Shown here: positions 1 through 44,106 of the stretch, piece after piece
How positions within the stretch are numbered: the first letter of the stretch is position 1
Layout: each line of letters opens with the position of its first letter
Assembly (NCBI GenBank): GCA_050273025.1
Contig: CP158635.1
Coordinates: 20,894,001-20,958,000, forward strand
Length of the DNA: 64,000 nucleotides
Direction of reading: 5' to 3'
Source of the DNA: Cenococcum geophilum
Lineage: Eukaryota
Notes under the pieces: generated by a model
Seen by the model: only the letters and a program-made list of their open reading frames with translations
Database searches by the model: none
What the model was told of the DNA's origin: nothing
Program-made: the position numbers and the translations under genes

Positions 1-2956
1 TAAGGAAGTCCCCATTAAGGCGTATAATAGTATTAAAAAAGTAGAGCGATATTACGCGCCATTACGCCGCGTATATAAGATTATCTCTTTAGAACTAAAG
101 GACGCTAGCGAAGAACTTACCTTGTAAATAGCTGTTAAAGCTATTAATAATTCCGCTGGCCCGGATAGACTCGTACTTATATTACTAGTCTTTAGCGCCT
201 ACCCTTAAATAACTAATAATTCTTTACTATTTCCCTTTATTATATAATAAGCTAAGGCTATTCGCAAGGTAATAAAGGAGGTGCGACGTCTTTACGCTAT
301 ACGCTAGGTTAATAACGCACTAGGAATAAGAAATGGCCTAAATACCTTAACTACGCTTAATCTGCCACTCTAGTCTAAAGTACGCATATAGCGTAAAAAG
401 GGAGGATAGTTAGGCCTATATTAACTTATTGCAATTAATGGTTAAACTTATACTATTTAGATGCCTCACAGACCCACTTAATTCTGTTTAACTATTATTA
501 AGCCTTACTATAAAGATAATAATTATAAGCCTTTATAGGATGCCCTAGAAGATGCCCTAGAAGAGAACTATAATTAACGTACTCTAGAAGACGACTACAA
601 TCCCAATATAATTGTAGTAGATATGTTATAACCATAACGCGGTAGAGGTCGCCTAAAGGGATTATAAAATCGCTAATATCTTATTAATTTTAAAGAATAA
701 TTTGTTGCCGCCATTAAGAATGGAGTTGAGTTATTAATGGCCTTTATAACAGCTAAAGAGAAGGCTAACTTTAAGCTCGTAAAACAGCTTTAAAAGGAAG
801 GTCGTATTATAACCCTAGGAGCTCCTTTCCAAGCATCTGATAAGTAGGAGATTAACGGTCTTATTGCAAGAGGAGTCTTTAAATTTAAAAAGTATGACCC
901 TACTAAGTTTAATAAAGTTTGCATCTTTAAGTTAAGAATGGTTAATGAGATTAAAGGCAAAGCTACTAACGCCCTATTTAAGAAATTAAGGCTTATTATT
1001 TAAGGTTATAACGATAATAGTAAGGAGGTAATTCTTACATAATCTCTTATAATTTAACGAGCTAGTTAGCAAGTTATTATTGCGCTAGCTCCCTCCTTAA
1101 TAAAGAATGGAATAGCGGTTTATTTATAAGATATTACTTAAGCCTACACCTAATTAGAGACGCACCTTTAGCGCTTAATATTGGCATACCTTCTGGAGCA
1201 AATTCGCCACTAGTATCCTGAAGATACAATTATAGTTGTGCTTAAGCTATTGTATAGAATTGTAGAGGTAGGAACTTACTAGTGGGCTACCTACAGTAAG
1301 CACTATAAAGAGAAGCTTTTAATAACTACTTCTATATTTAATTCCTGCTTCCTTATTATAACTATAGGAACTCTGTTTGGAATTATTGGTATATAAACTA
1401 ATAATACAATTATCTTAGGGGACGACTAATTCTTAGCTCTTAAAGAAGATAAGCTAGTAAAGGCAAATCTTATAGTAAAGCTAAAAGAAAAGCTTAATTT
1501 AATAACACTATTACTCTTTAATAGATGCATCCTCTCCCTAAATAAGGATTCTATTGCTTTACGCCAGAAGGGTTAAGGTAAGAAGATCGACGTTATTAAC
1601 GTTAATTCCCTAAAGTAAGGATATGTGGAGTAACGCGCTTATAGAGCTTATATTACTTCTATCTATTAACCTAAGGCTTTATTTAATCTCTCCGTTGCCG
1701 CCTAATACTAGGAACCAACTAAGGATGACGTTTTTACCCTAAATAAACGTCTTTTTTGGTAAATAAACCATCTTAATTGGGGACTACTCTACGTGCCTAT
1801 TAATCTTCCTACCGCTAAGCTCTTTATATTTATTAATAGATCGTTTATAAATAATAAAGATTTTAGCTCCTAGTTAGGATATAAGATTATTATCGCGAAC
1901 GAATTTACTAGAGAGAATAACTTTATAATCTATAGTAATCTTATCTATTAGAGCTTAACTAAAAGCAAGCGCGTTACCTAAAGTGTTTTAGCGTTAGAGA
2001 TATATAGAATAGTTAGCGGAGTTAATATAGCAATTGCAATTGGAACTACCCTAAAGATAATTATAGATCGACTTAAACTTCCCGTTATCCCTATAATTGT
2101 GTGCACTAACTCATATTCCCTTTATAAGTGTTTAATTAAGCTTGGTACCATAAAAGAGAAGCGCCTTATAATTGATATTATGGCACTTTAGCAATCCTAC
2201 GAGCGTTAAGAACTCTTTAAGATTTAATAGATTAATAGCTAAAATAACCCGGCAGATATAATAACAAAGGCGAACCCAAATAAGGCACTAGAGATGTTTG
2301 TTAATATAAATACTCTGCGTGTACGAGTTAAAGGTTAGGTTAAAAGGGAGTCCCTAGAAATTTCTTAGTCACGTAAGGTCTTAAGATATCTAGGAACTTT
2401 AACCGGCGGTTAAAGTTGTCTAATTGGTTAGATTCTCTTGCTAAGACTTTTTTAGAGGGGGAGCCTAACTTAATCTAGCCAATTAGGATTTTTTATCCCC
2501 GGGATAGAAAATCGCTATTAGCTCGCTTACTACTAGCGCCTTAGTGGCCCTCTAAACACGATATCTACCTATAACTCCTAAGTAAGAAAGCACCACGTGC
2601 TAAGAGGCAAATTTTGGGATAGCAAGACTTATATTATAATGGCAATAGTAAGTAAAAAGGATTAATATTTGTTACGCTAGTTAAGCGGTATATATATATA
2701 TATAGATGGCAACTACAAAAGAAGAGTTACCAGTATTAGGAATAAAGGCAAGTGGTCACTATATGAGGCATATTGCCACCACGTGTGGCAAGTTGCCGTT
2801 ACGTGCGGCAAGTTGCCGTCACGTGCCGCCGCGGCACTAGCGTGGTGAGGAACCTTAAGTTCCTTACCCCTTTCTTTAACGAATCAAAAAGAATAACAAT
2901 TATCATACTATCTACGAACCGTAGCTACGTGATATCACCTTGTGTAACCTACAATA
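1..2956 (+). mobile_element. Ty1/Copia LTR retrotransposon, 3' part (end of integrase, RT, RNase H, 3' UTR, 3' LTR), RIP-inactivated, nested in a Gypsy RT gene
   Basis: De-RIP reading gives KSRLVIQGYND..ILTQSPTIQR (~980-1060), GMQTDDTIIL (~1390), FVDGSFANNKD..SQLG (~1830), SKRVTRSVLASE (~1965) and NPADAMTK (~2245). Pol ends ~2369, followed by a purine tract at ~2717 and an LTR ~2734-2956. Gypsy RT resumes immediately after. Confidence 0.9.
2734..2956 (+). repeat. Copia 3' LTR
   Basis: Follows aaaagaagag PPT-like tract, starts tattagg (RIP'd tgttgg) and ends ...cctacaata. The right end is +/-3 nt. Confidence 0.7.
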
Positions 2957-3988
2957 TTAAACTATCGCAATTATTAGCGGGTTATTTAGTATAATTTGTA
3001 CTAAAGAAGAATAGTAAACTAAGGCTGTGTATTAACTATAGATAGTTAAACAGCATTACTAGAAAGGATAGATATCCTTTACCCTTAATTAGCAAAATCT
3101 AAGATAGGATAGGCAATGCGTAAATCTTTACAAAGATAGATCTAAGATAGGCGTACTATTAGATTAGAATTAAGGAAGGCAATAAATAGAAGGCAGCCTT
3201 TAGGTTAAAGGAAGGACTATATAAACTATTAGTTATGCAATTCGGGCTTATAAACACACTAGTAATGTTCTAAAAGCGTATTAATAATATATTAGGAGAG
3301 TACTTAGATAAGTTTATTATAGTATATTTTATTATTATTATTATCTACTTAATAATTAAGGAAGAATATAGAGAATACGTTAAATGGGTCTTAAAGAGAC
3401 TATAAGAAGAATAGATGCTAGTAGCAATTAAGAAATACAAGTTCTTTACTAGAAAGACCGATTTTATTAAATTTATTATTAAACTAGGCTAACTTAGTAT
3501 AGATCTAAAGAAGATTAAGGCTATAGTGAATTAGTAAGAACTAGAGAATATTATATAGTTAAGATTATTCTTAGGGTTTTGCAATTACTATAAAAGGTTT
3601 ATAGCGTAATAATTAAAGGATATTAAACTATTTACGTAATTAATAAAGAAAGAAGAACTATAAGTATAGGGGAAGAAATAATAAAAACTATTTAAAAAAG
3701 TTAAAGGGTTATTTACCTAGGAGCCAGTTCTTAAAATCTATTAACTAGGTCTAGAGACGGTTATAAAGACAAATATATTAAACTTTATATTAGGGGTATA
3801 CTTTATATAGAAATATTTAGACGGATGGTACTTAGTAGTATACTATAGTTGGAAAATAACACTACTAGAGTTAAACTATAACATTTATAATAAGGAGTTA
3901 TTAGGTATAATTATAGTATTAAAGGAATAAAGAGCATTCTTATAAGGTATAGAGAAACTATTTATAATTAAGACGGATTATAAGAACT

Positions 3989-6130
3989 GAATATTCACCA
4001 CACATGCAACCTTACCAAAAGGTGGCGCCGCACTTCAAAACTTACGCATACCCATCTTACCATCAAAAACAATCGATTTCCTAACTTTTAAGACCTAATT
4101 CTCACTGCCTAGCGAGCTAGAGGTGGATTTATTTGTCGTTTTACCCCCTTTTCCCCAGCAGAAAATTCTTCTTAGGGGTGGTCCTAGCTTATAAGCGAGG
4201 CACGGACAGGAACACCAAAACTACAACTACTACTACGAATACTAATAGGGGCTAGTCTTTCTACTACCTTTTAGCCTAATCTCCCCAGAAATCTTCTAGT
4301 AGGATTAGTAAGGAGAAAGGGTATAAAGATAGTAAAAACTAGAAACCCCCCTATAAGATATAAAATGCCAAGGCCTAATAGGTCTAAAAAAAAACCTCCT
4401 ATAGAAATAAGTGATGAAGATTCTACATCTACTTTTTCTCCCCCTTCTCCTTCTCCTGGCCCGTTTAGGACAGGAGAAAAAAGAGGACATCCTCAGTCTT
4501 CTCCTAAAAAAGAAAACCAAAAACCTGCAAAAAAGATAATAAAACTAACAACTACTACGGATAGTATGCCTAGTATACCTCCGTCTTCCCTTTCTCCGGA
4601 AGAACATCTACACGAGGCTTTAAGAAGCCTAATCCAGGCCTATAGAGGGCTAGAAGGAGAAGAACAAGAAGAACAAGTTGGACAGCTAATGGACTATACA
4701 CACAATATCCTAATAGGAAAAAACCCCTTTGCAAAAGAAGAAGAAGAAGAAGAGGCAAAAGAGGTCCTAGAAGGACTAGTAGAAGAAGTAAAAGCTCTCC
4801 GTAAGGAGGTAGCTTCTACTAAAAATACTTACGCAGAGAGACTGAAGAAGGACCTCCCTTCTTTTTCGTCCTCCCCACCCTCCTCACCATTACCACCACT
4901 ACCTTCTACCCCTTCTTCTTCTAGTAGGGGTTCTACTTCTACTAGAAGTAAGAAAAAGCAGCTATAAGAAAGGAAACTAGTCCTAATTACAGACGAAAAG
5001 GACCAACCTCTAGATACCTTCTCTATACGAAATAAAGTCAATCAACTATTTGCATCAAAACTGCAAGTAAAAAAGCCAGTTCTAGCGTCTATAGCTAGAA
5101 CTAAAGGAAAACAAAATATTCTCCTTACGACTACAGAAGAGTATAATGCAGATTTCCTAGTCAAATATAAGGAGATCTGGCATAACTGCTTTACCTTTTA
5201 AAGAGAACAAAAACTAGAACCATGGGTTCAAATTATAGCCCATGGGGTTCCTACCCTACCTTTCCTAGGAGAAGGAGGCTCTAAGCTTCTAAAAGAAGAG
5301 ATTGAGACCTTTAATCCTATAAGGATACAAGGACTACCTAGATGGATCTTATCTAGTGAAAAAAGACACAATCCACAGACCAGATTTGGCTCTATAGTTT
5401 TTACTATAGAGAACGAAGAAAAAAGACAAGAAATCCTTAAGCAAAAAGAGATATTAATTGCAGGTACAGCTACTAAGGTAGTAAAGTACCTTAAAGTCTC
5501 TCCTACTACGCAGTGTAATAGCTGCCAAAAATTTGGCCATATAGGAGACAGATGCTTTACTAGGGCCTGTAGATATTATGCGGCTGCACATCTATCTAAA
5601 GACCACTGCTGTCCTACCTGCTTAATAAGCGGTAGGCCTTGCAAGCATACCACCCCTCTTTGCATTAATTGTAAAGAAAAACACTTTGCTAATAGTAGAG
5701 ACTGCGAGAATCTTAGAGCAGCTAAATTAGTACATAGTACTAGCGTAGAAGACTCTATGGAAGAATAAAATTAATAGAAGTCTAGAAGGAGGTAACTCCT
5801 ACTAGGCTTTTAGGTTAAAAGACAGTAGAGAGCAAAAGGACAGAAATAAATTGCAAAAGGACAGGGACAGGGGTTAGGATTTCTTACAGTTTTTCTTACC
5901 ATTTTCTCATTCCCTAGTAGTTGTAGTATCTTAGTATTTTTACTAGGAAACTATAAACTCCTAATTTAGGGGTTTATAAACTACTAGGATATAGCTACTA
6001 GTACATATTAAGCTGCCCCAAAAAGGATTTATGTATATAGAACTATAGCGCCATAGCCCAGAGGCTGCATGCGCAGTATTGTACGTAGTATAATACAATG
6101 GATAAAAAAAAAAAAAAAAAAAAAAAAAAA
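3989..6130 (+). mobile_element. Non-autonomous LINE derivative carrying only ORF1, with poly(A) tail
   Basis: 13-bp TSD gattataagaact (3976-3988 / 6131-6143) and poly(A) ~6104-6130. The 3' ~330 nt match the LINE end at ~28780-29130. Confidence 0.92.
4365..5768 (+). pseudogene. LINE ORF1 (gag-like, three C-terminal zinc-knuckle-like motifs), one RIP stop at 4965-4967
   Basis: ORF 4365-4967 continues in frame past TAA (from CAA) to CNSCQKFGHIGDRC, CRY(C)AAAHLSKDHCC and CINCKEKHFANSRDC, with stop at 5766-5768. Confidence 0.88.
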
Positions 6131-7809
6131 GATTATAAGAACTTAATAGGATTCCTAATAATAAAGGAACTTAACTAAAAACAGGTTAGATAGGTAGAGA
6201 TATTTATAAAATACTATTTTAAAATTTAGTATACTAAGGGTATAGATAATACGCGGGCTAATGCGTTAAGTTAAAAGGCTAAACTATAAAATAATAAAAA
6301 GCCATTAAGGGCTTTACTACGAAAAGATATAAATAGGTTAATTAAATATAATTATTTAAAGATCGCAGCAACTTAGGAAAATAAGTTAGATAGAATTTAT
6401 AAGTTACTAAAAAGCTTTTAGGTATAGAAAATTCTAAAAGTATAGCTAGAAGATCAATAAACGAATATATATAAAAACTAAAAAGTAAAGTATATCCTAA
6501 AAAGCATAGTAGAGTACTTTATAGAAGATTTCTATAAGGGACTAACTTAAGGATATAATAGAGCTATAGGATTAGTATTAAGACTCTAAGAGGAGTATAT
6601 TATTAATAGAATCTAAAAAATAGCTAGGAGGGTTACTAAGGAGTATCTAAATTATTAAAGAAATAAACTAATAAGGCATAAACTATATAGAGGGCTATAA
6701 CCTATTAAAATACCGAAAAGACTATAGGAGGTCATATTATGGGACTTTATTATTAAGTTACTAAAATTAAGAGATCCTATTATAGGATAAGATTATAACG
6801 CGATCTTAATAATAGTGGATAAACTTATAAAGTAGGGATACTTTATAGCGTGTACAGAAGAAATCTTAGCGGAAGATATCGCTAAAATCTATATTAAAGA
6901 AGTGTTTGTAAGATATAGAGCACTAAGTAAGATTATATCGGATAGGGATTTAAGATTTATAGCAGTATTTTAGAAGGTATTCTTAGCAGAGTAAGAAGTT
7001 TAAGTAGTAACTTCTACTATATATTATCCGCAGACAGACGGTTAAATAAAAAGACTAAATTAGACACTAGAGTAGTATTTAAGGCACTATATTAATTACG
7101 CATAGAATAATTAGGTATTATTATTACTAGTTATATAATTTGCATATAATATAACACCTTAAAAAGGAATAGGCACTTTACTATTTAAGGCAAATTATAG
7201 ATATAAGCTAAGGATATTATTATTACCACATTAAGTAAAGAAGATAAGTAGTATAGTAAAGTAAAGAATAGATATGTTAATAAATCTTTATAAGAACCTT
7301 ACGGAAATAGTAAAAGTAGTATAGTAAAGGATAAAAAGATACTATAACGCTAAGAGATCTAAGGGACTAGATCTTAAGGAGGGAGATAAAGTATGGCTAC
7401 TATACAAAAATTTTAAAAGTTAATAACTAAGTAAGAAGTTGGACTACGTTAGACTAGGACCTTTTAAAATCACATAAAGGATTTTACTAATCACGTTTAA
7501 GTTAAACCTACTAGCCAAAATAAGAATCTACCCTATATAGTATATTACAATGCTAGAGCTAGTATATAGAAATATTAAGCTGCCGGTTTATAAAGTAGAT
7601 ATATATAAAGGGCAAGAAGAAAACAAATAATAAGTTTTAAAAATTGTTAGTTATAAGGACGTAGATAATAAAATATAGTATAAAGTAAAGTGGATAGGCT
7701 ATAATAAGACTACCTAGGAATCACTAGAAAATTTAAAGAACGCTATAGGAAAGATACAGGAGTATTAAAAGAGATTAGGTTAGGTAATATTATTAAAAAA
7801 GGATTAAAA

Positions 7810-8406
7810 AAGGAGTTACTTAAGGGGGACCCAGGAGGAACAGCTACTAAACTATTTAGACTTATTTCCTTTATAGGGGAGTCCGTTCTTTCGTCACTAA
7901 GTTCCTATAAACCTTATTCTATAAGCTTCTACTCCTTAAAACAGACCTTTTTATAAACCTATTTAAGATATAGAAGATAAGTAAAGGCCAAAAGACGAGT
8001 CTTAAGGGCACGCTGTTAAGTAGCCGCAGCCTTTTACTCCGCCTCTCGCGATTAATATAACTTATTAAAGGCGCTTAAGAGCTTACTATTAAGCTTTATA
8101 GCAGTAAATTAAACACGAGACCCTATAATAAATTACTTAGGGAACTTAAAAATTATTAAAAGTTATAGGACGTGTATATTTAGCGTTAGAAATAAAGTAA
8201 ATATTATAAGATAAATAAATATTTACTTTAGTACACTCTAAATAAGAGGAAGGTTGCCAAGATAAGGGACTTACTAGCGTAATATAAACTAACCTCTTTT
8301 TCGTATAATAAGAATACGGAGATGGCATTATTTTACCTAGTAATAGTATAGCAGCAATAGTGCGAGCATATTAAACTGTAGAAGAAAGAGAAATTGCTTT
8401 AGGTAT
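7810..8406 (-). pseudogene. Antisense Zn2Cys6-like plus coiled-coil gene inside Gypsy family A 3' region (copy 1)
   Basis: Two-copy consensus with 42985-43576 gives a C-x2-C-x6-C-x13-C-x2-C-x8-C pattern. Three of six Cys codons are seen directly and three are inferred from TAT/TAC. Confidence 0.6.
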
Positions 8407-8936
8407 AATAAGTAATAATATTAACTAAATTAATTAGACGGATATTACACCTTTAGTTAACAACTTAGAGATATTTAAAATCTTTAAGGATAAAGATAGA
8501 GAGGAGGGAGATAGTATTACGGACGCTTTAAATATAATATTATAACTACTTAGAGAAGAGTTAAAAGAAGCTAGTTAGTTAATATAGGCACAGTCTAAGA
8601 TAGAGCCGGTAGAACTATATAATAAGGAATAGTAACTAAGTTATATAATATAATCTATATAATCTGTATAATCTATATAATCCGTAATAAAGTAAATAAA
8701 GTATACATACCTTACGTATAAGGAGGGTTTCCTAGGAGTACGGTTATATATTTAAAGGACCATAATCCTTACTCTAAATAGTTCTTTCCTTATAGTAATT
8801 TTCAGAATATAATTAGAGTTAATCTATTAGGCAACCACTCCACTAGTTATTATTACGTTGTTGACTTACTTGTAATACCTACACACCTAGCCTAATAACG
8901 AGCCCATCGTAGTTCTTACTATAAGGTTCCGTTATA

Positions 8937-10560
8937 GTCCCTATAAAGATCCCGTTTTTAATAACTATAAGCTGTTTATTCTAAGTATAGGTAAAACCTT
9001 AGCCGTATAAAAGGGCTATTAAAAGGAGTTAAAGAAGTAAATATATAATATATGGAATACTAAAATATAAGGCTATTTAAATTACTTACAGCAAATATAA
9101 AGGCAGAACTGTTGGTATTTAAGCATATCTTATTTATATTACGTTCTATATAGGGTCCATTTCCAGTACCCTAATAGGACCAGTTTTAGGAGCTAAGCCT
9201 AAACTATTTATTAATGCTATTTACTTCCAAATTACGTATATAAGATACTATTCCGCTATATTCCATTAAATTAATCTATAGAAGCAGCTCTCCTCCTTAT
9301 TTAAGTTCTATTTCTAAATCTTAAGTTCTATTTTACTTTAACGTTTAGTAATCTCCAGTTTACTAAGCTAATTTACATAATACTTTAGCGGAGGAATAAG
9401 TGTTTACCAAGTCCGCCCACCTAAGCCTACTTTACTATCCCACTACCCTAAAACACACGCATTAATAAACAGTAGAATATTAAGGCTGCCTAGTACTACC
9501 CCTTTTTCTTTAGCCAAGTTATGCCTAGATAACTTCCTTAGCATTCTTATCTAAAAACTACACTCCCTTCCTCTCCTTTAGAGCTTTTACTAAAACTACT
9601 ATAAGCCGCTTAACCAAACTCGTGTAAGGCAGTAAGGCTTTATATCCACTACTAGCTATATCCTTACCACCCCTCTAAGGGGTAGTTAATTAGCAGGTAA
9701 AGCGGGGTAATCCCTTTAGGCAATGTCCATATATAGACATCTTAGAGATATATAGGCTAGTAGGCTAAATAGGATCCGCTAGGCAACTAAGGTCTACTCT
9801 AATTGTTAAAGTTATATATATCACCAGGGGTTTAAGTAACTATTTAACTGCATATAAATTTCTATATAGGTAGGCTTAGTTGCTTTTACCGTCTAGCCTA
9901 AGCTATAAAGAGGATTAGTATTACTTAGCCTAGCTCTATTCTAACCACCCTAATATAATCTTAGTTTTGTTAGGCCCCTAAAGCAAGTAAGTAATCTAAG
10001 TAGGTTTACTATATAGCTAGACCTTCCAGCTTAAATAAGTTAAGGGCTCTATTGTTTTAAATAGAATGTGGGACATTATATAAGCTAATTAGGTCCTATT
10101 TATTACTTCGCGATTAAGACCTAAGGTACTCTCTTAACTTCCACTAATCTCCCCAAACTAATGTCTTTAAAAAAAGCTTAAGAGGATAGTGTATATAGGT
10201 AGTTTTAGCTATATCTTATTAAGCCACCAAGCAGATTAGAATCTTTATATATATCGCTAGCTATTATTTCTTCTCTTAGGCCTTAAGCATAGTTTCTTAC
10301 TGGGCGTAGTGGGGTTTATAGGCTAGGATTATTGTTATATCCGCTTATCTAGGTATTTAATAGCTCTATAATAGAGTAGATTGGTTGCCTTTATATTAAG
10401 TATTTAGGCAGGTAAAGCAAATTTTAAGTTAATTATAGCCGAGCTCCTAAGCCATAAAATAATAATCTATCAACTTTTTAATTAGCCCTAGGGTTTAAAA
10501 AAACGGTAGAAAATATAGGGGGGTAGAATTTGGCTTTATATAGAGGCTTAAAGTTAGTTT
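8937..10560 (-). other. RIP-degraded probable coding region of unidentified type
   Basis: A long minus-strand frame contains only TAA/TAG (RIP-type) stops and ends at a gtaagt donor-like site (~9090). No family was recognised. Confidence 0.3.
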
Positions 10561-10869: not shown

Positions 10870-11305
10870 ATACAGAGCTTCGTATAAAGCCTCCGTACGC
10901 AGAACTTTATATAGAGCCTTATACAGAGCCTCTATATATAAAGCTTTATATAGAGCTTTGTATAGAGCTTTGTATAAAGCCTTATATAAAGCCTCTATAC
11001 GTAAAGCTATATATAGAGCCTTATATAGAGCCTCGCGTAAAGCTTTATATAGAGCTTTATATAGAGCTTTATACAGAGCTTTATATAGAGCTTTATATAG
11101 AGCTTTATATAGAGCTTTATATAGAGCCTTATATAGAGCCTCTATACGTAGAGCTTTATATAAAGCCTTATGCAAAGCTTTATATAGAGCCTTATGCAGA
11201 GCCTCTATATATAGAGCTTTATATAAAGCCTTCTGTAAAGCTTTATATAGAACCTTGTACAAAGCCTTTATATATAAAGCTTTATATAGAGCTTTATACA
11301 GCCTT
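10870..11305. repeat. 12-bp minisatellite (agctttatatag)n with occasional 15-bp units
   Basis: Directly visible. It generates the repetitive ALYK/ALYR ORFs in the ORF track. Confidence 0.9.
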
Positions 11306-11314
11306 ATAGTATTT

Positions 11315-16690: not shown

Positions 16691-19600
16691 GGAAACCCTT
16701 TTTTATAAGAACTTGTTAAGGTTAACGCGTTACAGATAAACCTCGTACGAAACTTATTAAGGCCCTAAGGCTACCGCGAAGAACTTATTAAGGCCCTGCC
16801 TAGAGAACTTATTAAGGCCCCTCTACGAGGGCCTATTTGGTATTTGGTACTCCTAGGTAACTTAGAAGAGGGTCTTAATAGGCGTGGTGCGCGCGACCTA
16901 GAGACGCGATAATGATATAATAGCGACGCGACGGCGATTAGACGGCTTAACGAGGTGGAAATATAGGCAAAGCTCTAGGCAGCGGAAACACAGGCCAGCT
17001 TTGACGGCCCTATAGCGTTCGACATACGGTTAACCTATAGGTGACTTACAGGAGGGCCTTAATAGGCGTGGTGCACGTAACCTGCGTATATATATAGGGG
17101 AGGCTCTAAGGAAATATAGGCTAGTTATATAAGGACTCGATAGTTAGAGATATAGGCCAGCTTATATAAAGGGGGGATATAAGCTTAATTAGTAGAATAG
17201 GGTAGGGTAGGTTGCCTAGTATAGGACCTAGTCTATAACCTATTCTGTAAGGCACGGTCGGCCTATTATAAGGAGACTCTTATAGGCAACGCGAAATAGG
17301 AATTAAAACCTCCCGTAGGGCGTAGTATATAGTAGCCACTGCTAGCTTTAGGGACCTTACCCCTTAGCTAGGCTCTAACCCCTAGTATACCTAGTAGGTA
17401 GGTAGGATTACGTCCTAGCTGGAGAGACTACTATACGGCTTAAGAGAATAGATACGCGTATTGGTATACTAACAGACGGGACTGCTTACTAGGGTAGTAC
17501 GCTAGTAAGGTATACTTAAGGAGTAAATAGGAGTTACTTGGGCGGGAGAGGTTTTGGCTAGGCCTTGATCGTAGAAGGTATACCTAGCTATATTACAGGA
17601 TGTAGCTATAACGCCCTTATAGGACTACACTAGTAGGCGCGTAAGATAGGAGTTGCGACCCCTATAAATGGTAGCTTATGCCCGCGCTAGTGGAAATAAT
17701 AAAGAAAAGCGTAAAACTAGAGGCTATAGAAGGCTCCTAAGCCGTATAAAAGTGTACTAACTTTAGGAGGAAACTCTTATATAGACCGCTGGGGGGTAGA
17801 TTAGTACTTGGGCTAATCCCGTTATAAGATATCTAAAAGAACTAGTGAGAATCCCTATATTAGGTAGTGGTAGCTAACTGCTTATAGACTAGGACTAAAG
17901 TATTAGAAAACTAGGGTAGAGGCCTAAATAAATAGGTATATTAAACTTTACTATATTACTAGCTAATATATAACTACCTACTATAAATTAGCTTTTATCT
18001 ATTTGTAAGGAACTAGGGCTACCTATAGTGTTTACGTAATAGGTAGCTACCTTCCTTAGTAATAGAAAGCTATAGCTTTGCTTTAATGGACAAATATAAA
18101 AAAAGGTAGATGTTACAGTGCTGTAATGAAGTAGACTAAATAGCTACGTTGTGGTATAAAGAGGGGAAGAAGGTGGAAAGGGGGTATTGTATACAAATAG
18201 TAGGGCTAGCCGCTAAGTCACTAGTGGTGGGCTAGCTAATAGTAGGAAATAGTATAAGATAGTATAAAACAGTATGTATTAGGTCAGTGCCGTAATAGTA
18301 CTCCTCTCCCCTAGATGGTTTGGTCCCTAAATTAAATAGATAACTTAAAAATAGGCAGTGTATAGGGTTACCTATTTTTTTTTTTTTTACTGTAAAGATG
18401 TTAATTCCGCTTACCGCCCTTAACCGAGCTAATGGCGATTTTCTATACCGGGCATGGAAAATCCTAATTAGTTAGTTTAGTGAGTAAGGTTGGTAGAACT
18501 CTATACCGCCACCTAAATTAATCCGCGTGGCGTTTCTTGGCAAGAATTTGGCTAATTAAATAACTTTAACTGCTAGTTAAAGTTCTATAACATCTTAACC
18601 ACCACAAATTTTAATACGGTGGTTGGCTGTGACCTTAGCGTAACTTTTCCTTATCTTATACTTAGTCTAAGGGTCTTGGCTTCTTAGGGTGTTACTTATA
18701 AAAGCGCTATATGGCTTATTTATAACCCCTTAGGTCTTCCTCTAGCTGCTAGGTTATGTCCTTATAATATTTCCATTTAATCTTATAAGTTAGGCCCTAG
18801 GGGTCTTTGTTGTATATATTAAGGATTTTCTTAAACTCCCATTTGTCTTCTATGTTACCATTATTATTTCTCTCTACTACTTATCCTTGTATATTACGGC
18901 GCTCTATAGTATTAATATTTACTTAGCTAGGGATCTTTTTAGTAGCCTAGAGGCGGACCTTAGATATATAAAAGGATTTATTTACTTAGATATAGTCTGG
19001 GAGGTCTACTACGACTACCCTTTAGTATACTGCGAGTACGGGGTATAGGCCGTCCCATTTATCGTCCTATTTCTTCTTAGGTCTATTTATCTTTATATTT
19101 TCTAAGCTAACTATAACTATATCGCCTTCGTAGAATAACGCGCTCTTATCCCTACGGGTATTAGCATTATCTTTATAGCGTTACTATAAAATCCGGGCTA
19201 GGGCCTTAAGCTATGTTAATATCTACTTAAAGCGGTTAGCCATAGAGTCTGCGCGGAAGAACTCCCTCTTTACTTATACTAATAGTATTAGTAGGTAGGG
19301 GCCAGCAGGCTTAATTCCAAGGCGAGGGTTAAAGCTATAGTTTACAAAAAATGGGAAGATGCCTGTGCTCTTATTGACTTGGTTATTTGTAGTAAACTTA
19401 GTAAGCGGCAGGTAGTTAACCTAGTTATCCTATATAAAGCTAACAAAAGTATAAAGGTATTTATTTACGGCAGCGTTAATAATTTTAGTTTAGCCGTCCG
19501 TTTCTAGGTACTAGGCTAAGCTTAGTTATAAGGTTGTCTTAAGGCGTTTACTTAGTCGTTGCTAGAAGTCGCTAACAAATTATATACCGCGATTAGAGAT

Positions 19601-20029
19601 AATCGTGCTTGGTATACTATAGAGCTTATATATATTATTAATAAAGCTATTAACTAGCTCCTCTATTAAGAGTCCTGTTACTAAAATAAGGTATTATATT
19701 TTAGTTAGGCGGTCTATAATAATAAGGATATATTTATATGCCTTACCGTGGCGTTAGTATACTAGCAGCGTTATAATATAGTTAATTAAGATATTAGTCT
19801 ATAGGCGGGCGGGTAATTTTAGTAGCTTTAGGAAACCGGGTGGGGTAGAATAGGGGGTCTTAGTGCGAAAGTATAGGGTATAGTCTTTAACGAAGGTAGC
19901 TATAAACTGGGAGATTCCTAGCTACTAATATATTTAGTTTAAGAGGTTAAAAGTTTTAACCCGGCTAGGGTAACTAGCGGGGCCGCTACTATAAGAATGA
20001 TGGGTAACTTCTAGGTGGAGGTCTAGGGT

Positions 20030-21408
20030 TTTTTTTTTTTTTTTTTTTTTTATATCCGATTGTATTATACTACATACAATACTGCGTATGCAGCCTCTAG
20101 GCTATGGCGCTATAGTTCTATATACATAAATCCCTTAGGGCAGCTTAACATATACTAGTAACTAAGTAAACACTCTGGCCCGTTTTAGATGCTAGGGGAG
20201 TTTTATCCTAGTATTTTGCTCTCTAATATTTAGTTTGCACTAAGGAAATAAAGAAATCCTGGCTCTTTTATCTATTTCTGCCGTATTCTGCCGTTCCTAG
20301 AGTAGAAAAAGCGCTCTAAAAGATAGATTTAGTAATATTTTTGCATATAAAAACAAAGGGCTCTATATAGTTTGCCAGCTTAGAGACAACTACCAGTTAT
20401 TCCTATACAACTTTTTTTGGTAATGTGACCTATTTCTTCTCCTTGCTTAAGAATAGGTAGGGAATTAGTAATTAATAGCTACTCTTCCCAAAAGTAGGCT
20501 ATTAATCCTAGATTTACGTTCTAGAAAACGGGTATTTTATAAGGGCGAACCTTGCTATATAAACCCACCCTAAAAGGAAAATTTTTCACAAGGTTGTCTT
20601 GTATAGGTTATAAACACCAATTCGCCTATACACCTTATATTTTACGTGCTAAAGTAACACAGGCCGGCCCCTTTCCCCCTACTATAGCTACCCTAGCAGT
20701 GCATCGTCTGCGGTGCCTCTGCTATGCGCCTGCGGTGCCTCTGCCATACGCTTATAGTATAGTAATTGCCTACAGCGCGACAGCTATAGACTAGTTATAG
20801 GGGATGAGGTCGTCTGCTCTATGGCAGACTGGTTATAGGGGAGGAGGTCGTCTACTCTGTGGCAGACTTATTGTAGGGGAGGAGGTCGTCTACTCTGTGG
20901 CAGATTCGTTATAGGGGAGGAGGTCGTCTACTCTATAGCAGATTCGTTATAGGGGAGGAGGTCGTCTACTCTATAGCAGATTCGTTATAGAGGAGGTCGT
21001 CTGCTCTGTGGCAGATTCATTATAGAGGAGGTCGTCTGCTCTATGGCAGACTGGTTGTAGGGGAGGAGGTTGTCTGCTCTGTAGCAGACTAATTGTAGAC
21101 AGGGTCGTCTGCTCTATGGCAGACTGGTTGTAGGGGAGGAGGTTGTCTGCTCTATAGCAGACTGATTGTAGAGGGGGTCGTCTGCTCTGTAGCAGACTGA
21201 TTGTAGAGGGGGTCGTCTGTTCTGTAGCAGACTGATTGTAGAGGGGGTCGTCTGCCTTATGGCAGACTGGTTGTAGTGGAGGTGGTTAGTTGTTGTGGTG
21301 ACGCGTCGTGTGACGCGTCCTCAGGGGGTATATAATCGGCGGCGCCCCTGCGACGACGGCGGAGGAGCAAAGGGAGGCGACGGCAGAGACGAAAGGGAGG
21401 CGACGGCG
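20030..21408 (-). mobile_element. SINE-like retroposon with LINE-derived 3' tail and tandem hairpin array
   Basis: 13-bp TSD ggaggtctagggt (20017-29 / 21409-21) and poly(T) on + at ~20030-20051. 20052-20163 matches the LINE 3' terminus at ~5995-6104 and ~29020-29130. No ORF. Confidence 0.9.
20790..21280. repeat. 13 tandem 35/38-bp units each containing a 7-bp-stem, 4-nt-loop hairpin (gtctgcY-NNNN-Rgcagac)
   Basis: gtcgtct/gttgtct at 20809, 20847, 20885, 20923, 20961, 20996, 21031, 21069, 21104, 21142, 21177, 21212 and 21247. Confidence 0.9.
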
Positions 21409-24400
21409 GGAGGTCTAGGGTATTAGGGACGAAGAGATATTAGCGGAAGTAGATCTGTCCGTTAATAATATTATATTCTAACTTATTATAATGGAGTAAT
21501 TTCCTAATCTTCTTTAGCTAATAGCGAGCTTTCTAATTATATAGGGCCGCTACTATATCTCTTACAAGTTTATTCTCCTAGTATCCTAGCCAGATTAACT
21601 TATTTAGTGACTTTTTGGCTATTTTAGGGTCTAGAGCGGCTATAAACTTTACGTTATTAGAATTACGGGACTTATATAATAATTCTTCTAAGATTATAGG
21701 GTTAACTTTCTGGGGCGGTATAACGACTTAGGCTTAGTAGCGGAGGCGTTTATTATTGGCGTCCTTAGGCCTTATTTTTAGTAGCCGGCTTAGGGCGTTA
21801 GGGAGCGTAGCTTTGCTACTAGGTCTATATATAATTATAAAGTTAAACTATAAAAGGAACTCTGCCTACTGGACTTGGCGCTAATTTAGCTACTTAGTAG
21901 TTATAAACGTCTATAGGTTCTTATAGTTAGTAATAATTTTAAACGGCTCCTTAGTCCCTTGCAGCTTAGGACGCTATTCCTTTAAAGCCTTAATAATAGC
22001 TAAGAGTTTTTTATTATAGATTTTGTAGTTATACTTTAGCGTAAAGTACTTTACGGAGAAGAATACGACCGGTCTTAATTTTCTGTTATTATTATACTGG
22101 GAAAGGACTCTGTCGGAAGCCTAATTTAATACATCTATCTCTACTACTGTTTTCTTTATATAGTTATAGTATGCTAGTACTAGTGCTAAAGTAAAGGCTC
22201 CCTTAAGGGCCTTAAACGATTTAGCTTATTCTAGTCCCTATAGCTATCCAATATCCTTCTTTAGGAGTTTTGTTATAGGTATAGCGATAGCAGAGTAGCT
22301 TTGGATAAATTGTTAGTAGAAGTTCGCAAAGCCGAGAAATTATTATAGTTCTTTAATTAATGTCGGGTCCTTCTATTTTTATAAGGCCTATACCTTCTTA
22401 GGGTCTATAGTTATGCTATTAGTTAAGATAATTAAGCCGAGGTATTTTGTTTTAGTAGAGTAAAACTTAGACTTATTAATATTAATCTAAAGTCTAGCAT
22501 TACCAAGTCTTTGGATAACTTCATTTATATACTTAGTATGCTCGGCGCGTATTTTAGAAAAGATAAGGATGTTATTAAGGTAGACAGTGCAGTAGTTATT
22601 AAGGGCGTTATATAGAATATAGTTAATATAATTCTAAAATATAGCGGGTGCGTTATAGAGGCCAAATAGTATAACTAGTATTTTATAGAGTCCGAACCGG
22701 GTAATAAATGCTATAAGCTACTTATAGCCCTTTATAATCTAGATCCGGTTAAACGCAGTAATTATATTAAGTTTAGTAAAGTACTTAGCACTATAAAGTA
22801 CGTTAAGTATCTTGCCGATTAGTAGTAGTGGGTACCAATTTTTAATAGTAACTGTGTTTAGGCCTTAGTAGTTATAGTAGATTTATATACTACCGCCGGG
22901 CTTAGCAGCGAGGAAAAGTAGTGCGGTAGCTAGTGAGGTTAATTTGCGGATAAAACCCTTATCTAGCATCTTATTAATCCACTTCTTTACACACCTAAGT
23001 TCAGCAGGTAAGAGTAGTCTATTTTTATAGTATAGGGCCTAGTTTCCGGGGATAATCTTAATTTTATGGTCCCATAGTTGGTAAGGGGGTAGCTTATCTG
23101 CGTTCTTAGGGAGGAAGTGCTTAATATATTTATAAAACTCCTTTAGTAGGCGTTATAGAATGTCTTCGCAGGTTAATCCTAGTTTGCTTTTTAGGAATTT
23201 TTTAACATTAATATTAACTATCTTCCAACGTAGAAGCTTGGGTTTAGTTTTTAGATTTATCTTAAGGAAGTTATAAAAATAGGGGGGGAGTACTTTACGG
23301 GCTTCCTTTATTATATAGTTGCCTTTTACTAGCCAGCGGAAAGACCTTTCTAATAGGTTTGGTACTTCTATTAGGCCTATAGGCAGCTCTTTAAGCAGCT
23401 ATTAGTGCTTATCTTATTTAACTAGTTCTACTAGCTTCGCTATATAGATCCTTATTACCTTTATATCTTTTTATTTATAGAACTAGGTAAAATTAATAGT
23501 ATAAGTATATTTAATATTATCTAGGTTAGGGCGTATCTAGTTCTCCGGTGCTACGGCTGGGCTAGTATAGCTTAGTCAGCCTAGGGGGGCGGAAACGAGG
23601 CGGCGGCCCTATATAGTACGCGCGGGAAACGGGTATAAGGTTAGGTATTATAGTGGCGCGGTTTCTCTTATTCGGGTCTTAGTAGTTCCATAGCCAGTCC
23701 TTATTATAACGCGAGCTGTAGTATGCGTATATAGCATATAGCTTAGTTCTAGGTATTAGGCTAGGCGGCTAGGGTTTAAATAGTACCTAAATTGGGGTTA
23801 GATTCTTAGTAGTGGCGGCATAAAGCGGACCTTCTTTCTAGGTCTCGGCAGGGCTGGCTAGCCCGTCGTTTTAGTCTTAAGTACTAAGGTAGTCCAGTCT
23901 TCCGCTATTTTATTTCTTTGCAGCTATATAGGCTCCCCTTTATTAGAAACGTCTTTTACTATTAGGGCTTTATATATAGTTCTAGGCACTAAGCTTAGTA
24001 GTGCTAAGTATCTATATAGGGCGTCCCTACTACCATTAGTTATCCCCTATAGGAGGTAGTGCCTAAAGCAGTAGTCTAAGTTAAAGCGGATCTTAAGTTT
24101 CCTAAAGCTAGGACGGGGCTTATATTTCTAAAGCTAAAGCATACCTAAGATAATTAGGGTAGTAAGCGAGAGTTTAGTAATAAAAAAGAGCATGGCTTTA
24201 GTATAAAGGCCAATTAATATTTAGGTGGTAAAGTAGTCTGTAATAAGCGAAGTTAGGATACTATCTGCGAGGCGTAGTGGCCTAGGTGCTAGCAGCTTCT
24301 TAGTTATAACGTTATACTTTCTTATAATAGACTCTATATTAATAAATGCCATTACAGTACTACCGGAGTCTATTAGGCTTACTATATTAATATAAACTTA

Positions 24401-39000: not shown

Positions 39001-42000
39001 AAAGTTGTCTAGGACCACCCGATCACGGAAAAGGCTATAACTTATATTAAAGGAGCCTTAATTATAACGTTAAAAGATCTAAAGGAGCAATTAGAGGACT
39101 AGAGAAGTAAAAGGTAAATCTTAGTACCTGCAAACGAAGTTGCAACACTTAGATTAATATAAGAAAGGTTTAAACTTAAGGATAAAGACAAGCTAAGAGT
39201 TAACCTAAGACACTAAGCACATTACACGTTAGCATAGATCGTATATATAGATAATGCGTGTAATATGCATAGAGCACTAAAAGATAAGAATTGGAAATAT
39301 CTAGTAAGGATATAGTAGTTAGCAGATAAGGCGAAATACTAAAACGCTAAGTATATGCATAGTTAGCACCTAGTAGAAGTTTAAGAATAAGGGGACTTAA
39401 TACTTTAACTAGAAAGATTCCTTATAGAAGAATACCTAGACGGATAATAGTGGTATAAATGTCCTAAGAATACGTATCTATAGCATATTAAAGATAAAAA
39501 GCGAACTAAGTATTGGCCTAAGTTAGACTAAGTATAAATAGGATCTAGTGGCTAGTAGTTAGGAAAAGTAGAGGCCTATAAAACCAGAGGGAACTAGTAG
39601 TAAAGCCTTAAACCCTTAAAGGAATTTAAGGAAAATACCTAAATTTACGAGTTAAATGGCAAGATTAACAGTTTGAGGTATTAATAGATAGTAAAGCAAT
39701 AAGGAACTATATCTTACTAGTAGCAGTTAAAAGAATAGGGTTACCGCATAGGAAAAAGGAATGTCCTTATTTATTAGTAATAATTTTAGGAGATCTAATA
39801 GCCTATGGAGGAGGTATTATTAATCTTAAAACAGGACCTATTTAGTTAACTATTAAAGGGAGATAAATTGAGATGTCTTTTAATATATTACTATTAGGGA
39901 ATAATAAGGTAGTATTAGGAATGCCTTAGTTATAGGAATATAATTTAAAGATTAATTGGGTTATAGGTTAGGTCAATATTAAGGATACTTAACGCCGTAA
40001 GATGTAATAATAAGCCAAAATAGTATGGTACTAAGTAGGAGCGACCTACGAGAAAATAGAAAAAGGGCTAAGCTATGTACTAAAGAGATACCACAAGTAT
40101 AGCAAGAAACTATAGTTATTAGAAAGTAAAAAGCTATTAGAGTATACAGTATAGGACTATAGGATAGAATTAGAACTAGAAATAAGTCTAAGGTTCTTTC
40201 CAATCTATAAGCTTATTAAAGAAGAAGGTAGAGCATTAAAAGAGTTTATCTAAGAGAACTTATAAAAGGGATATATTAGACTATTGTAATTATTAGCGGG
40301 TTATCTAATACTGTTTGTACTAAAGCAGAATAATAAATTAAGGCTGTATATTAACTATAGATAGTTAAATAGCATTACTAGAAAGGATAGGTATCCTTTA
40401 CCCTTAATTAGCAAAATCTAAGATAGGATAGGTAATGCGTAAATCTTTATAAAGATAGATCTAAGATAGGCGTACCATTAGATTAGAATTAAGGAAGGTA
40501 ATAAATAGAAGGCAGCCTTTAGGTTAAAGAAAGGACTATATAAACCATTAGTTATACAATTTAGGCTTATAAACGTACTAGTAATATTCTAGAAGTGAAT
40601 TAATAATATATTAGGAGAACACTTAGATAAATTTGTTATAGTATATCTTAACGATATTATTATCTATTTAATAACTAAGGAAGAATATAGAGAGTACGTT
40701 AAATGGGTTTTAAAGAGACTATAAGAAGAATAGATGCTAGTAGCAATTAAGAAATGCAAGTTCTTTACTAGGAAGACTAATTTCATTAGATTTATTATTA
40801 AACTAGGCTAACTTAGTATAGATCTAAAGAAGATTGAGGCTATAGTAAATTAGTAAGAACTAGAGAACGTTACGCAGTTAAGATTGTTTTTAGGGTTTTG
40901 CAATTACTATAGAAGGTTTATAGCGCAATAGTTAAAGGATATTAAGCTATTTATACGGTTAATAAAGAAAGAAAAACTATAGGTATAGGGAGAAGAGTAA
41001 TAAGAACTGTTTAAGAAAGTTAAAAGGTTATTTACCTAGGAACTAGTTCTTAAAATCTATTAACTAGGTCTAAAGACGGTTATAAAAATAGATGTATTAG
41101 ACTTTGCACTAGGGGTATACTTTATATAGAAATATTTAGATAGATGGCACCTAGTAGCATACTATAGTTAAAAAATAACACTACTAGAGTTAAACTATAA
41201 TATCTATAACAAGGAGTTATTAGGGATAGTTATAGCATTAAAGAAATAGAGGGCATTCTTATAAGGCATAGAAAAACTATTTATAGTTAAGATAGATTAT
41301 AAGAACCTAACAGGATTCCTAATAATAAAGGAACTTAATTAAAGATAGGTTAAATAGGTAGAGATACTTATAGAATACTATTTCGAGATTTAGTATACTA
41401 AGGGTATAAATAACACGCGGGCTGATACGTTAAGTTAAAAGGCTAAACTATAAAATAATAAAAAGCTATTAAGGGCTTTACTGCGAAGAGATATAGATAG
41501 GTTAATTAGATACAATTATCTAAAAATTATAGTAACTTAAGAAAATAAGTTAGAGAAAGTTTATAAGTTACTAAAAAGCTTTTAGGTATAAAGAATTCTA
41601 GAAGTATAGCTAGAAGACCTATAAACGGATATATATAAAAACTAAGAAGTAAAGTATATCCTAAAAAGTATAGCAGAGCACTTTATAGAAGATTTCTATA
41701 AGGGATTAACTTAAGGACATAATAAAGCCACGGGATTAGTGTTAAGACTCTAAGAGGAGTATATTATTAACGGAATCTAAAAAATAGCTAGGAAGGTTAC
41801 TAGAGAGTATCTAGATTATTAGAGAAATAAACTAATAAGGCATAAGCTATATAGAGGGCTATAACCTATTAAAATACCAGAGAGACTATAGGAGGTCATA
41901 TTATAGGACTTTATTATTAAGTTGCTAAAGTTAAGAGATTCTATTACCGGATAAGATTATAACGTAATCTTAGTAATAGTAAATAAGCTTATAAAGTAGG

Positions 42001-44106
42001 GATACTTTATAGCGTATATAGAAGAAATCTTAGCGAAAGATGTCGCTAAAATCTATATTAAAGAAGTATTTATAAGACATAGAGCACTAAGCAAAATTAT
42101 ATTAGATAGAGATCTAAGATTTATAGTAGTATTTTAGGAGGTATTCTTAGTAGAGCAAGGAGTTAGAGCAGTAACTTCTACTATATATTATTGGCAAACA
42201 GACGGTTAAATAGAAAGATTAAATTAGACACTAGAGCAGTATTTAAGATACTATATTAATTACGCATAGAATAATTAGGTATTATTATTACTAGTTATAT
42301 AGTTTATATATAATATAATACCTTAAGAAGGAATAGGCACTTTACTATTTAAGGCGAATTATAGATATAAGCTAAGGACATTATTATTACCATATTAAGT
42401 AAAGAAGATAAATAGTATAGTAAAGTAAAGAATGGAGATATTAATAAATCTTTATAAGAACCTTACGGAAATAGCAAAAGTAGTATAATAAAGGATAAAA
42501 AGGTACTATAATGCTAAGAGATCTAAGGGACTAGATCTTAAGGAGGGAGATAAAGTATAGCTACTATATAAAAATTTTAAGAGTCGATAACTAAGTAAGA
42601 AGTTAAACTATGTTAGACTAGGACCTTTTAAAATTACGTAAAGGATTTTACTAGTTATATTTAAGTTAAACCTACTAGCCAAAATAAAAATCTACCCTAT
42701 ATAGTATATCGCAATACTAGAGCCAGTATATAGAGATATTAAGCCACTAATTTACGAAGTAAATATATATAGAAGGCGAGAAGAAGACAAATAGTAAGTT
42801 TTAAAGATTGTTAGTTATAAGGACGTAGATAATAAAATATAGTACAAAATAAAGTAAATAGGCTACGATAAGACTACCTAGGAACCACTAGAAAATTTAA
42901 AGAACGCTATAGGAAAGGTATAGGAGTATTAGAAGAGAATAGGTTAGGCAACATTAATAAGGAAGAATCGCCAAAGAATAAGTTACCTAAGGGGGACCTA
43001 GGAAGAGCAACTACTAAACTACTTAAAGCTATTCCCTTTATAGGTAGAGAGTTAGTTCTCTTATTACTAAGTTCCTATAGACCTTATTTTATAAGCTTTT
43101 ACTTCTTAAAACGAACCTTCTTATAAACCTGTTTAAGACGTAAAAGATAAGTAGAGGCTAGGAGACAAGTCTTAAGGGCACGCTATTAAGCAGCCGCAGC
43201 CTCCTATTCTACCTCTTGCGATTAATATAATTTATTAAAAGCGCTTAAGAGCTTACTATTAAGCTTCGCAGTAGTAGATTAAATATAAAACCCTATAATA
43301 AATTACTTAGGGAACTTAGAGACTATTAAGAGTTATAGGATATATATACTTAGCGTTAGAAACAGAGCGAACGTTACAGGACAAATAAATATTCGCTTTA
43401 GTGCACTTTAAATAAAAGGAAGGTTACTAAAATAAAGGACTCGCTAGCGCAACGTAAACTAACCCCTTTTTTGCATAACGAGAACATAAAGATAATATTA
43501 TTTCACCCAGCGATAGTATAGCAGCAATAGTGCGAGCACATTAAACTATAAAAGAAAGAGAAATTACTTTAGGTATAATAAGTAACAATATTAACCAAAT
43601 TAATTAGATAAATATTATACCTCTAGTAAATAACTTAGAGATATTTAGAATCTTTAAGGATAAAGATAAAGAGGAGGGAGATGGTGTTATAGACGCTTTA
43701 AGTATAATATTATAACTACTTAAAGAGCAGTTAGAAGAAGCTAGTTGGTTAATATAGGTATAGTCTAGAATAGATCTGGTAAAACTATATAATAAGAAAT
43801 AGTAACTAAGTTATGTAATATAATCTATATAATCTATATAATCTATATAATCTATAATAAAGTAGATAGAGCACACGTACTTTATATATAAGGAGGGTTT
43901 CCTAGGAGTACGGTTATATATTTAAAGAACCACAGTCCCTACTCTAGATAGTTCTTTCCTTATAGTGATTCTCAGAATATAATTAAAGTTAATCTATTAG
44001 GCAACCACTCTACCAGTTATTATTACGTTGTTAACTTACTTGCAATACCTATACACCTAGCCCAATAACGAGCCCACCGTAGTTCTTACTACAAGGTTCC
44101 GTTATA
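36071..44106 (+). mobile_element. Full-length Ty3/Gypsy family A, copy 2 (LTRs 36071-36492, 43685-44106)
   Basis: 422-bp LTRs and TSD ggtcc (36066-70 / 44107-11). Gag ATG 36532, knuckle (C)xNCGK(Q)G(H)xxRD(C) ~37535, protease VLIDS(G)A ~39680, RT YLNDI (YLDD) ~40645, integrase and chromodomain. Confidence 0.95.
42985..43576 (-). pseudogene. Antisense Zn2Cys6-like plus coiled-coil gene inside Gypsy family A 3' region (copy 2)
   Basis: Reads ..ARTIAAILSLGEI..CSR(C)AKKGLV(C)VALASP......(C).KCTKANI.LSCNVRSVS, then a putative intron ~43347-43293 and a helical A/E/Q/R-rich segment. Confidence 0.62.

Follow-up and report, generated by a model that had tools for sequence, protein, structure and literature searches.

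ERV-9/LTR12 elements carry NF-Y-bound enhancer repeats in the U3 region of their long terminal repeats (LTRs), with CCAAT boxes as the working part; we know of no palindromic partner site in these repeats and of no transfer to other superfamilies. The RM boxes of the plant Sireviruses are palindromic, have a CGG/CCG core, lie shortly upstream of the LTR TATA box and have been proposed to be regulatory (PMC2829016). For fungi, CCAATVR is described as the consensus of the CCAAT-binding complex, which covers 13 nt (PMC7144946), and KSRLVI, QTDD and CQPEA are given as motifs of GalEa Copia elements (PMC5445492). Recombination between co-packaged retroelement RNAs produces chimeric LTR and non-coding regions within one lineage (PMC12992720), and template switching between short inverted repeats leads to spacer inversion and arm homogenisation (PMC8604942). 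The stretch analysed here (hereafter the window) comprises 64,000 nt of Cenococcum geophilum (contig CP158635.1, positions 20,894,001 to 20,958,000), in which a Copia and a Gypsy retrotransposon share a non-coding stretch in their 3′ untranslated regions (3′ UTRs). This shared stretch is not one folded RNA but consists of two separable, promoter-like DNA modules, A and C, each made of a CCAAT box and a palindrome centred 17 nt downstream. To judge from their sequence, both modules are probably bound by the CCAAT-binding complex.

The shared stretch and its two hosts

Positions 2381-2529 (+) aligned with 18598-18421 (−) over the whole stretch (nhmmer E 5e-14), and blastn of the 3′ half gave 59 nt at 85% identity (E 1e-13). 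The match between the two tails that an earlier note on this DNA had described is thus real. Hairpin A (2395-2417 and 18584-18562) and hairpin C (2487-2513 and 18463-18437) are both present, and both copies lie between the pol stop and the polypurine tract (PPT) in the same sense relative to their hosts. Neither program found a third full copy within the 64-kb window. The flanks, called unrelated in that note, are so for this pair of elements, but those of the Copia turned out to be pieces of other Gypsy families.

Most of the window carries a strong signature of repeat-induced point mutation (RIP), and a Pfam search of the window Copia copy gave no match. Its class was established from L297, a full-length and less mutated copy with a frame 72% identical to that in the window, an RVT_2 match (E 7e-10) and all three GalEa motifs, which are RIP-altered in the window copy. 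In L297 the modules lie between pol and a 204-bp LTR. The second host, Gypsy B, matched RVT_1 and RT_RNaseH in Pfam, confirming its class, but the chromodomain ascribed to it was recognisable by eye only and had no Pfam chromo match. The features of the two tails are as follows.

2-2368 (+), pol of a GalEa-type Copia (Copia A) with integrase end, reverse transcriptase (RT) and RNase H, RIP-degraded; stop codon TAG at 2366-2368
2351-2450 (+), block captured from a D2-type Gypsy 3′ end; 90/100 identity to L142, E 1e-36
2369-2376 (+), E-box-like octamer, RIP-compatible TCACGTGA
2395-2417 (+), palindrome of module A with 10-bp arms, a 3-nt centre and the core CCG-N-CGG
2420-2430 (−), CCAAT box of module A, pointing back into pol; fits CCAATVR, 17 nt from the palindrome centre
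2440-2445 (+), GCCAAG hexamer, RIP-altered in the window Copia
2448-2463 (+), dead Gypsy-type PPT, a T-run followed by a G-rich tract, built like the live PPT in Gypsy D2 and C
2464-2582 (+), block from the U3 of a Gypsy C-type LTR; 72/82 (88%) to L099, 82/104 (79%) to the 3′ LTR of L091
2479-2521 (+), module C with CCAAT box, 27-bp palindrome (2487-2513) and inverted CCAAT box (2517-2521, RIP-altered)
2670-2953 (+), the Copia's own 3′ LTR, start approximate, without modules; 2736-2953 is 94% identical to the upstream LTR in L104
18562-18584 (−), palindrome of module A in Gypsy B; its start lies 29 nt past the pol stop (18613-18611), counted from the first base of that codon
18536-18559 (−), inverted CCAAT box of the Gypsy B module A (RIP-altered) and intact GCCAAG
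18429-18471 (−), module C of Gypsy B; the surrounding block is common to Gypsy E and element J, where it is inverted
18111-18312 (−), live PPT of Gypsy B (18312-18301) and 3′ LTR; LTR pair 18111-18300/26238-26427, 91%

What had been taken for a variable insert within a long stem is the dead Gypsy-type PPT at 2448-2463.

Two separable modules across the genome

The genome searched (G000) comprises 178 Mb in seven contigs. A pattern for module A (hairpin A plus inverted box) gave 3,354 matches and one for module C (hairpin C plus CCAAT box) 698, with none for either reversed-pattern control. Among the first 30 A matches on contig 1, 16 were A alone (no C within 220 nt downstream), eight had C as in the window and six had C inverted. 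The same three arrangements recurred among 253 distinct A copies with enough flank, drawn from G000 loci and at least 131 metagenome stretches (those listed come from four assemblies and mostly belong to the same families): 124 had A followed by C, 88 A alone and 41 C inverted, with 65 of the 253 coming from loci picked because they resembled the window. We placed copies in families by comparing their flanks with those of example copies, and a few assignments may be wrong.

Because the patterns tolerated only two to three substitutions not attributable to RIP, more diverged arms are under-sampled. A looser search gave 173 matches, and at least seven of the 100 listed kept box and core but had uncompensated arm mismatches; four such loci that were fetched all proved to be element J. 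It revealed no third type of module, 99 of these first 100 matches being A or C, and a pattern for other palindrome arms gave 28 matches against 28 in its control. A palindrome at 52381-52410 of the window, considered as a third module, belongs to another repeat family (40 matches), lacks a CCAAT box and appears by eye to be coding. Locus L098, a candidate for C reversed in the tail of a second Copia, may be an inserted LTR and was excluded from the counts. Searching IMG/VR with the module patterns gave no match.

Positions and orientations in the host families

Module A lies in the 3′ UTR with its CCAAT box facing pol, that is, reversed, in eight families (Copia A, its variant A2, and Gypsy B, D1, D2, E, F and K). 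Family H holds A forward, in the opposite orientation, with a PPT and LTR beyond A in 18 of 19 copies. In Copia I, of which L298 is a full element (RVT_2 E 1e-47), A is inside the 180-181-bp LTR, 70-71 nt from its start wherever the start could be located (10/12 copies), and the distance from CCAAT to a TATA-like box is 55 nt in 12/12 copies; two solo LTRs of this family have 5-bp target duplications. In this host, then, A sits upstream of the core promoter at a fixed distance. Two further hosts carry it before an open reading frame (ORF): element J, just upstream of the first ATG of a gag-like ORF in 4/4 fetched loci (weak Retrotrans_gag matches, E 0.006 and 0.027), and repeat G, about 260 nt upstream of an ORF in 12/12 loci. 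Repeat G has at least 67 matches, all those listed carrying stops, and its identification as a Fot1/pogo transposase found no Pfam support. Gypsy C holds module C in the U3 of both its 229-bp LTRs (L091, L102), where no TATA box was identified. In Copia A, Gypsy B, K and H the 3′ UTR carries C forward; E and J have it reversed. Half of the Gypsy E copies (20/40) hold A alone, and Gypsy C is without A. The modules thus occur alone, together and in both orientations relative to the host.

Some of these hosts have features of their own. Element J is young, with 233-bp LTRs that are 99.6-100% identical (L291:528-6725, L292:3113-9840), and has an intact gag-like frame of 743-813 codons without a pol match; it is apparently transcribed, and A and C flank its ORF, facing each other. 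The ORFs of repeat G, about 1000 codons long and paralogous, are often paired 5-6 kb apart (L136:2390-5389, 7800-9901; L319-L330). At L209:268-400 a single copy of an LTR-like sequence beside gag-like sequence has A about 60 nt from its start, with CCAAT in sense.

Signs of protein-binding sites

All three CCAAT boxes of un-RIPed copies fit CCAATVR. Positions −2 and −1 of the box, which the pattern left unconstrained, are purines (AA, AG, GA or GG) in 187/187 C copies. The palindrome centre lies 17 nt past CCAAT at 391 of 891 boxes, a little further out than the 13 nt covered by the complex, and this is the only odd offset that occurs; these loci were picked for modules, but nothing in that choice imposed one spacing on two dissimilar modules. 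In 11 of 12 families the hexamer GCCAAG occurs no more than 28 nt from A, at a distance of 10-14 nt (background at most 0.04), and an octamer RIP-compatible with TCACGTGA lies 17-25 nt upstream of A in six of 12 (background 0.04-0.08), intact in nine copies only. Both were kept though spacer lengths differ between families. The hexamer, octamer and CGG core would correspond to a putative PacC site, a putative basic helix-loop-helix (bHLH) E-box and a putative Zn2Cys6-type core, respectively. These observations support one of the two options of the earlier note, a palindromic DNA element with CCAAT boxes and a GCCAAG site.

Folding, covariation and RIP

The other option, a conserved RNA multi-way junction, found some initial support. 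The window Copia copy folds into three helices (z −4.33), and in a 20-sequence alignment of copies with A followed by C, 92.8% of the cells pair and the covariation score exceeds 499 of 500 shuffles. The Gypsy B copy, in contrast, folds differently (z −1.56), and both strands of L157 fold about equally (z −4.9/−4.0). Two-sided changes occur in nine pairs of the alignment, eight of them C-G/T-A transitions at RIP sites, and a transversion in only one of 34 pairs (R-scape was not used); apart from this one pair, then, covariation is of the kind produced by RIP. Nor are RIP states more linked at paired than at unpaired sites: log odds were 0.85-2.1 at paired sites against a median of 1.2 at unpaired ones for A, and 0.4-0.7 against 0.7 for C.

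The long stem of 12 bp and its reconstructed pre-RIP form fared no better. Outside the 8-bp CCAAT core, the adjoining pair is T.G in 51/53 Copia copies and C.A in 48/57 Gypsy B copies; the two pairs after it are mismatched in un-RIPed alleles. The stem is two opposed CCAAT boxes, and what extends beyond 8 bp was built by RIP. When RIP alters the two arms of a palindrome, it thus fakes RNA covariation and even builds stems.

Hairpin A has no transversion pair in 253 copies, and its central base alternates between G and C within 7/12 families. The swap of an inner pair in hairpin C is, as had been pointed out, a real transversion (98 C-G-type and 89 G-C-type of 187 copies, without a one-sided intermediate), but it does not separate Copia from Gypsy, both forms occurring within seven of nine named groups. 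A single swap of this kind needs no selection on RNA, since template switching between short inverted repeats yields such changes. The complete architecture was present at only eight of the 30 A matches on contig 1, and the 253 A copies, with their three arrangements and two orientations, have no fixed architecture or strand. Rfam at gathering score gave no match in the window, and the best hit for L157 reached 14.8 bits (E 0.2).

A captured Gypsy tail and exchange between superfamilies

The D2-type block of the Copia tail starts within the final five codons of pol, and the in-frame stop comes from it. A stop is present at this codon in 48/48 Copia copies, none of which has a pre-RIP sense codon, and the same codon is TAG in 6/6 Gypsy D2 copies; a translated tail of Pol, considered for the modules, is excluded by this stop, 29 nt before A. 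Of 53 Copia A copies, 43 show the dead PPT between the D2-like block and the Gypsy C U3-like block. A D2-like 3′ end, a dead PPT and a Gypsy C-type U3 in succession indicate that the tail is a Gypsy 3′ UTR-PPT-U3 junction placed before the Copia's own PPT and LTR. Its donor may have been one element outside our sample, or the tail may have arisen in two steps.

Among the six Gypsy hosts, RT identity is 37-47% in 12 of the 15 pairs; C, D1 and D2 are closer to one another (61-76%). Blastp found no match between the Copias and these six hosts. The DNA around A that is shared among the Gypsies and two Copias nevertheless comprises, for most pairs, 33-80 nt at 74-96% identity. Low RT identity against high identity around A points to transfer and not to common descent. 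An origin by recombination between Copia and Gypsy is thus, on sequence comparison, well supported, as the earlier note had proposed for a non-coding cis-element, and we infer template switching in reverse transcription or ectopic recombination as the route.

Other composite tails were observed. The 3′ UTR of family K at L161 holds most of a Gypsy C-type LTR, to its 3′ end, ahead of its own PPT, and variants of Copia A either continue from Gypsy C-type LTR sequence into that of the Copia LTR or have the cassette in its Gypsy B form (L157/L297; L087, L112). The distance of 29 nt from pol stop to hairpin A is common to Copia A/D2 (2366-2395) and Gypsy B (18613-18584), and the first 14 nt past the stop are unlike between them. 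This common spacing may be due to chance, as E, F and K differ, their pol homology ending more than 200 nt upstream.

Elsewhere in the window, Copia LTR positions 2700-2850 contain repeated GGCAAC/GTTGCC half-sites and CACGTG boxes, which look similar to sites of RFX and bHLH type. Two copies of another repeat family, 88-90% alike, lie at 2954-8941 and 40273-44112, the former directly abutting the Copia 3′ LTR. Short tandem and inverted repeats with stop-free frames on both strands occupy 10870-11308, and similar arrays occur near J-type copies (L094). The pol of Gypsy B is broken by inserted sequence at 19980-21800, including imperfect tandem repeats at 20788-21287.

RNA reads over the modules

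About 12% of the raw RNA run X19, whose strandedness was inferred from read asymmetry, was searched, giving 352 reads on L157 at 85% likeness. Depth over C was 23 on one strand and 3 on the other. The loose ends of 36-37 reads match, by eye, the flanks of element J, which indicates that C is transcribed in reverse in J. Reads over A ran in the sense of the 3′-UTR hosts (depth 8.2 vs 0). At this low depth no piled-up read ends were seen over the modules, and negative results from X19 are weak for the same reason. A stretch of 46 nt at L157:322-367 had a one-strand RNA depth of 105 against 7, with fold-back joints and reads from other contexts.

Weighing the explanations

We lean somewhat towards reading A and C as promoter or enhancer modules of LTR DNA that would bind the CCAAT-binding complex and a dimeric partner and continue to act in 3′ UTRs. 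The CCAAT box would be the site of the fungal complex (HapB/C/E, NF-Y) and the palindrome, centred 17 bp downstream of it, that of the partner. The modules would be transferred by template switching or ectopic recombination, the flips of the centre and the single C:G/G:C swap may stem from template switching between inverted arms, and retention in 3′ UTRs would follow from continued binding of host factors beside the 3′ LTR. Several points weigh against this reading. Most copies lie in 3′ UTRs, from where a fungal upstream activator does not obviously reach the 5′ promoter; the conservation of the core is partly imposed by the search patterns with their two to three allowed substitutions; and a block can be inverted and spread simply as a passenger. 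The HapX rule CSAAT-N12-RWT does not hold, the triplet at 13-15 in un-RIPed copies being ACC for A and TGC/TCC for the two C boxes. X19, at low depth, did not indicate an antisense promoter at A (0.8-1.9 antisense against 0.4-9.2 sense at the pol end), and Pfam gave no match for the gag-like ORF of family H and none that would reveal the host class of repeat G. Finally, U3 and 3′ UTR both lie at the 3′ end of the genomic RNA, and most positions accordingly fit an RNA role as well.

An account that we consider unlikely, yet give real weight, is that the modules work only in their native LTRs and that the 3′-UTR copies are idle, captured LTR ends, their spread favoured by template switches at palindromes and shared CCAAT boxes. 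The dead PPT-U3 junction in the Copia tail, the foreign LTR in family K, the uneven presence of A and C in Gypsy E and C and the lack of visible antisense transcription would suit such debris. It does not readily explain why the homology between pairs of families is mostly reduced to the same 45-70 nt, why hexamer and E-box survive changes in spacer length, or why A has the same 3′-UTR orientation in eight families. Fairly improbable, in our estimation, is a strand-neutral signal in RNA or cDNA, with palindromes that pair genomic RNAs, for dimerisation or packaging, or guide strand transfer near the 3′ end and so would let unrelated families co-package and recombine. The equal folding of both strands, the location of U3 and 3′-UTR copies at the RNA 3′ end, the swap in hairpin C without one-sided intermediates and the clustering of exchange at the modules agree with it, but it leaves the non-palindromic CCAAT box, GCCAAG, the fixed TATA distance and the copies before ORFs in G and J unexplained, and it has to contend with the arm mismatches tolerated in J and with only one covarying pair not of RIP type.

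The single RNA multi-way junction or ribozyme of the earlier note is largely refuted, and we regard it as highly unlikely. Its three helices and high covariation score in selected copies are outweighed by the deviating fold of Gypsy B, the missing architecture at 22 of 30 unselected A matches, the RIP-type changes and mismatched stem extension, the lack of an Rfam match or piled-up read ends, and the reverse transcription of C in element J. A miniature inverted-repeat transposable element (MITE) or other small mobile element inserted separately into each host is scarcely credible. There are thousands of copies, and an A-bearing stretch in D2 has a GCC triplet on either side, the corresponding site in Gypsy C being empty (target duplications were assessed by eye). 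Against this, terminal inverted repeats are lacking, block ends differ between family pairs, and nearly all sampled copies sit at fixed, non-random places of recognisable host families, unlike the randomly placed copies that the earlier note would have expected of a MITE.

Returning to the promoter modules, a combined scenario can be drawn, which we rate as distinctly improbable: Copia and Gypsy elements of this fungus would draw on a common pool of host-factor modules (CCAAT and a palindrome at 17 bp), and a module before the PPT would either activate the single LTR of one-LTR circles and tandem arrays or pair RNAs across superfamilies for co-packaging and recombination. If the latter were true, the module would drive its own spread.

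Comparison with known systems

The same short modules recur in about a dozen lineages, which suggests that regulatory parts move between superfamilies. Retrotransposon recombination is known mainly within families; here, exchange across superfamilies is seen directly in the sequence. The modules provide testable candidates for host factors behind the expansion of transposons in a large fungal genome. A literature search on CCAAT/palindrome modules of LTR retrotransposons, judged by titles and the beginnings of abstracts and covering neither supplements nor subscription papers, returned none describing such modules.

In contrast to the modules, the repeats of ERV-9/LTR12 are tandem and belong to one animal family. 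PMC12910237, a study of a large-genome fungus that deals with RIP and the expansion of transposons, does not mention CCAAT, palindromes, hairpins, enhancers or untranslated regions in its main text. The exchange described here spans Copia and Gypsy, whereas the cases considered from PMC12992720 are between variants of one lineage. With the Conserved Hairpin Site (PMC5445492) our case has in common a GalEa-type host and a non-coding hairpin that is sometimes common to families of one species; that site, however, directly follows the 5′ LTR, where it replaces the primer binding site, has 9-nt arms and another sequence, and is described for GalEa only. The bipartite motif of CCAAT-binding complex and HapX (PMC7144946) likewise combines CCAATVR with a second site just past the 13 nt covered, but the modules have no RWT 12 nt past the box, their partner site is a long GC-cored palindrome and not a basic leucine zipper (bZIP) half-site, and they were found in retrotransposons. 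Closest in layout are the Sireviruses (PMC2829016), with a palindrome of CGG/CCG core near the LTR TATA box and an extra PPT upstream of the 3′ LTR. Their RM boxes are tandem, high in copy number and restricted to one Copia genus, whereas the fungal Copia I has one module A per LTR, and the modules described here are single units with a CCAAT box that cross between Copia and Gypsy, lie mostly in 3′ UTRs and are accompanied, in the Copia tail, by an extra PPT that is a foreign relic.

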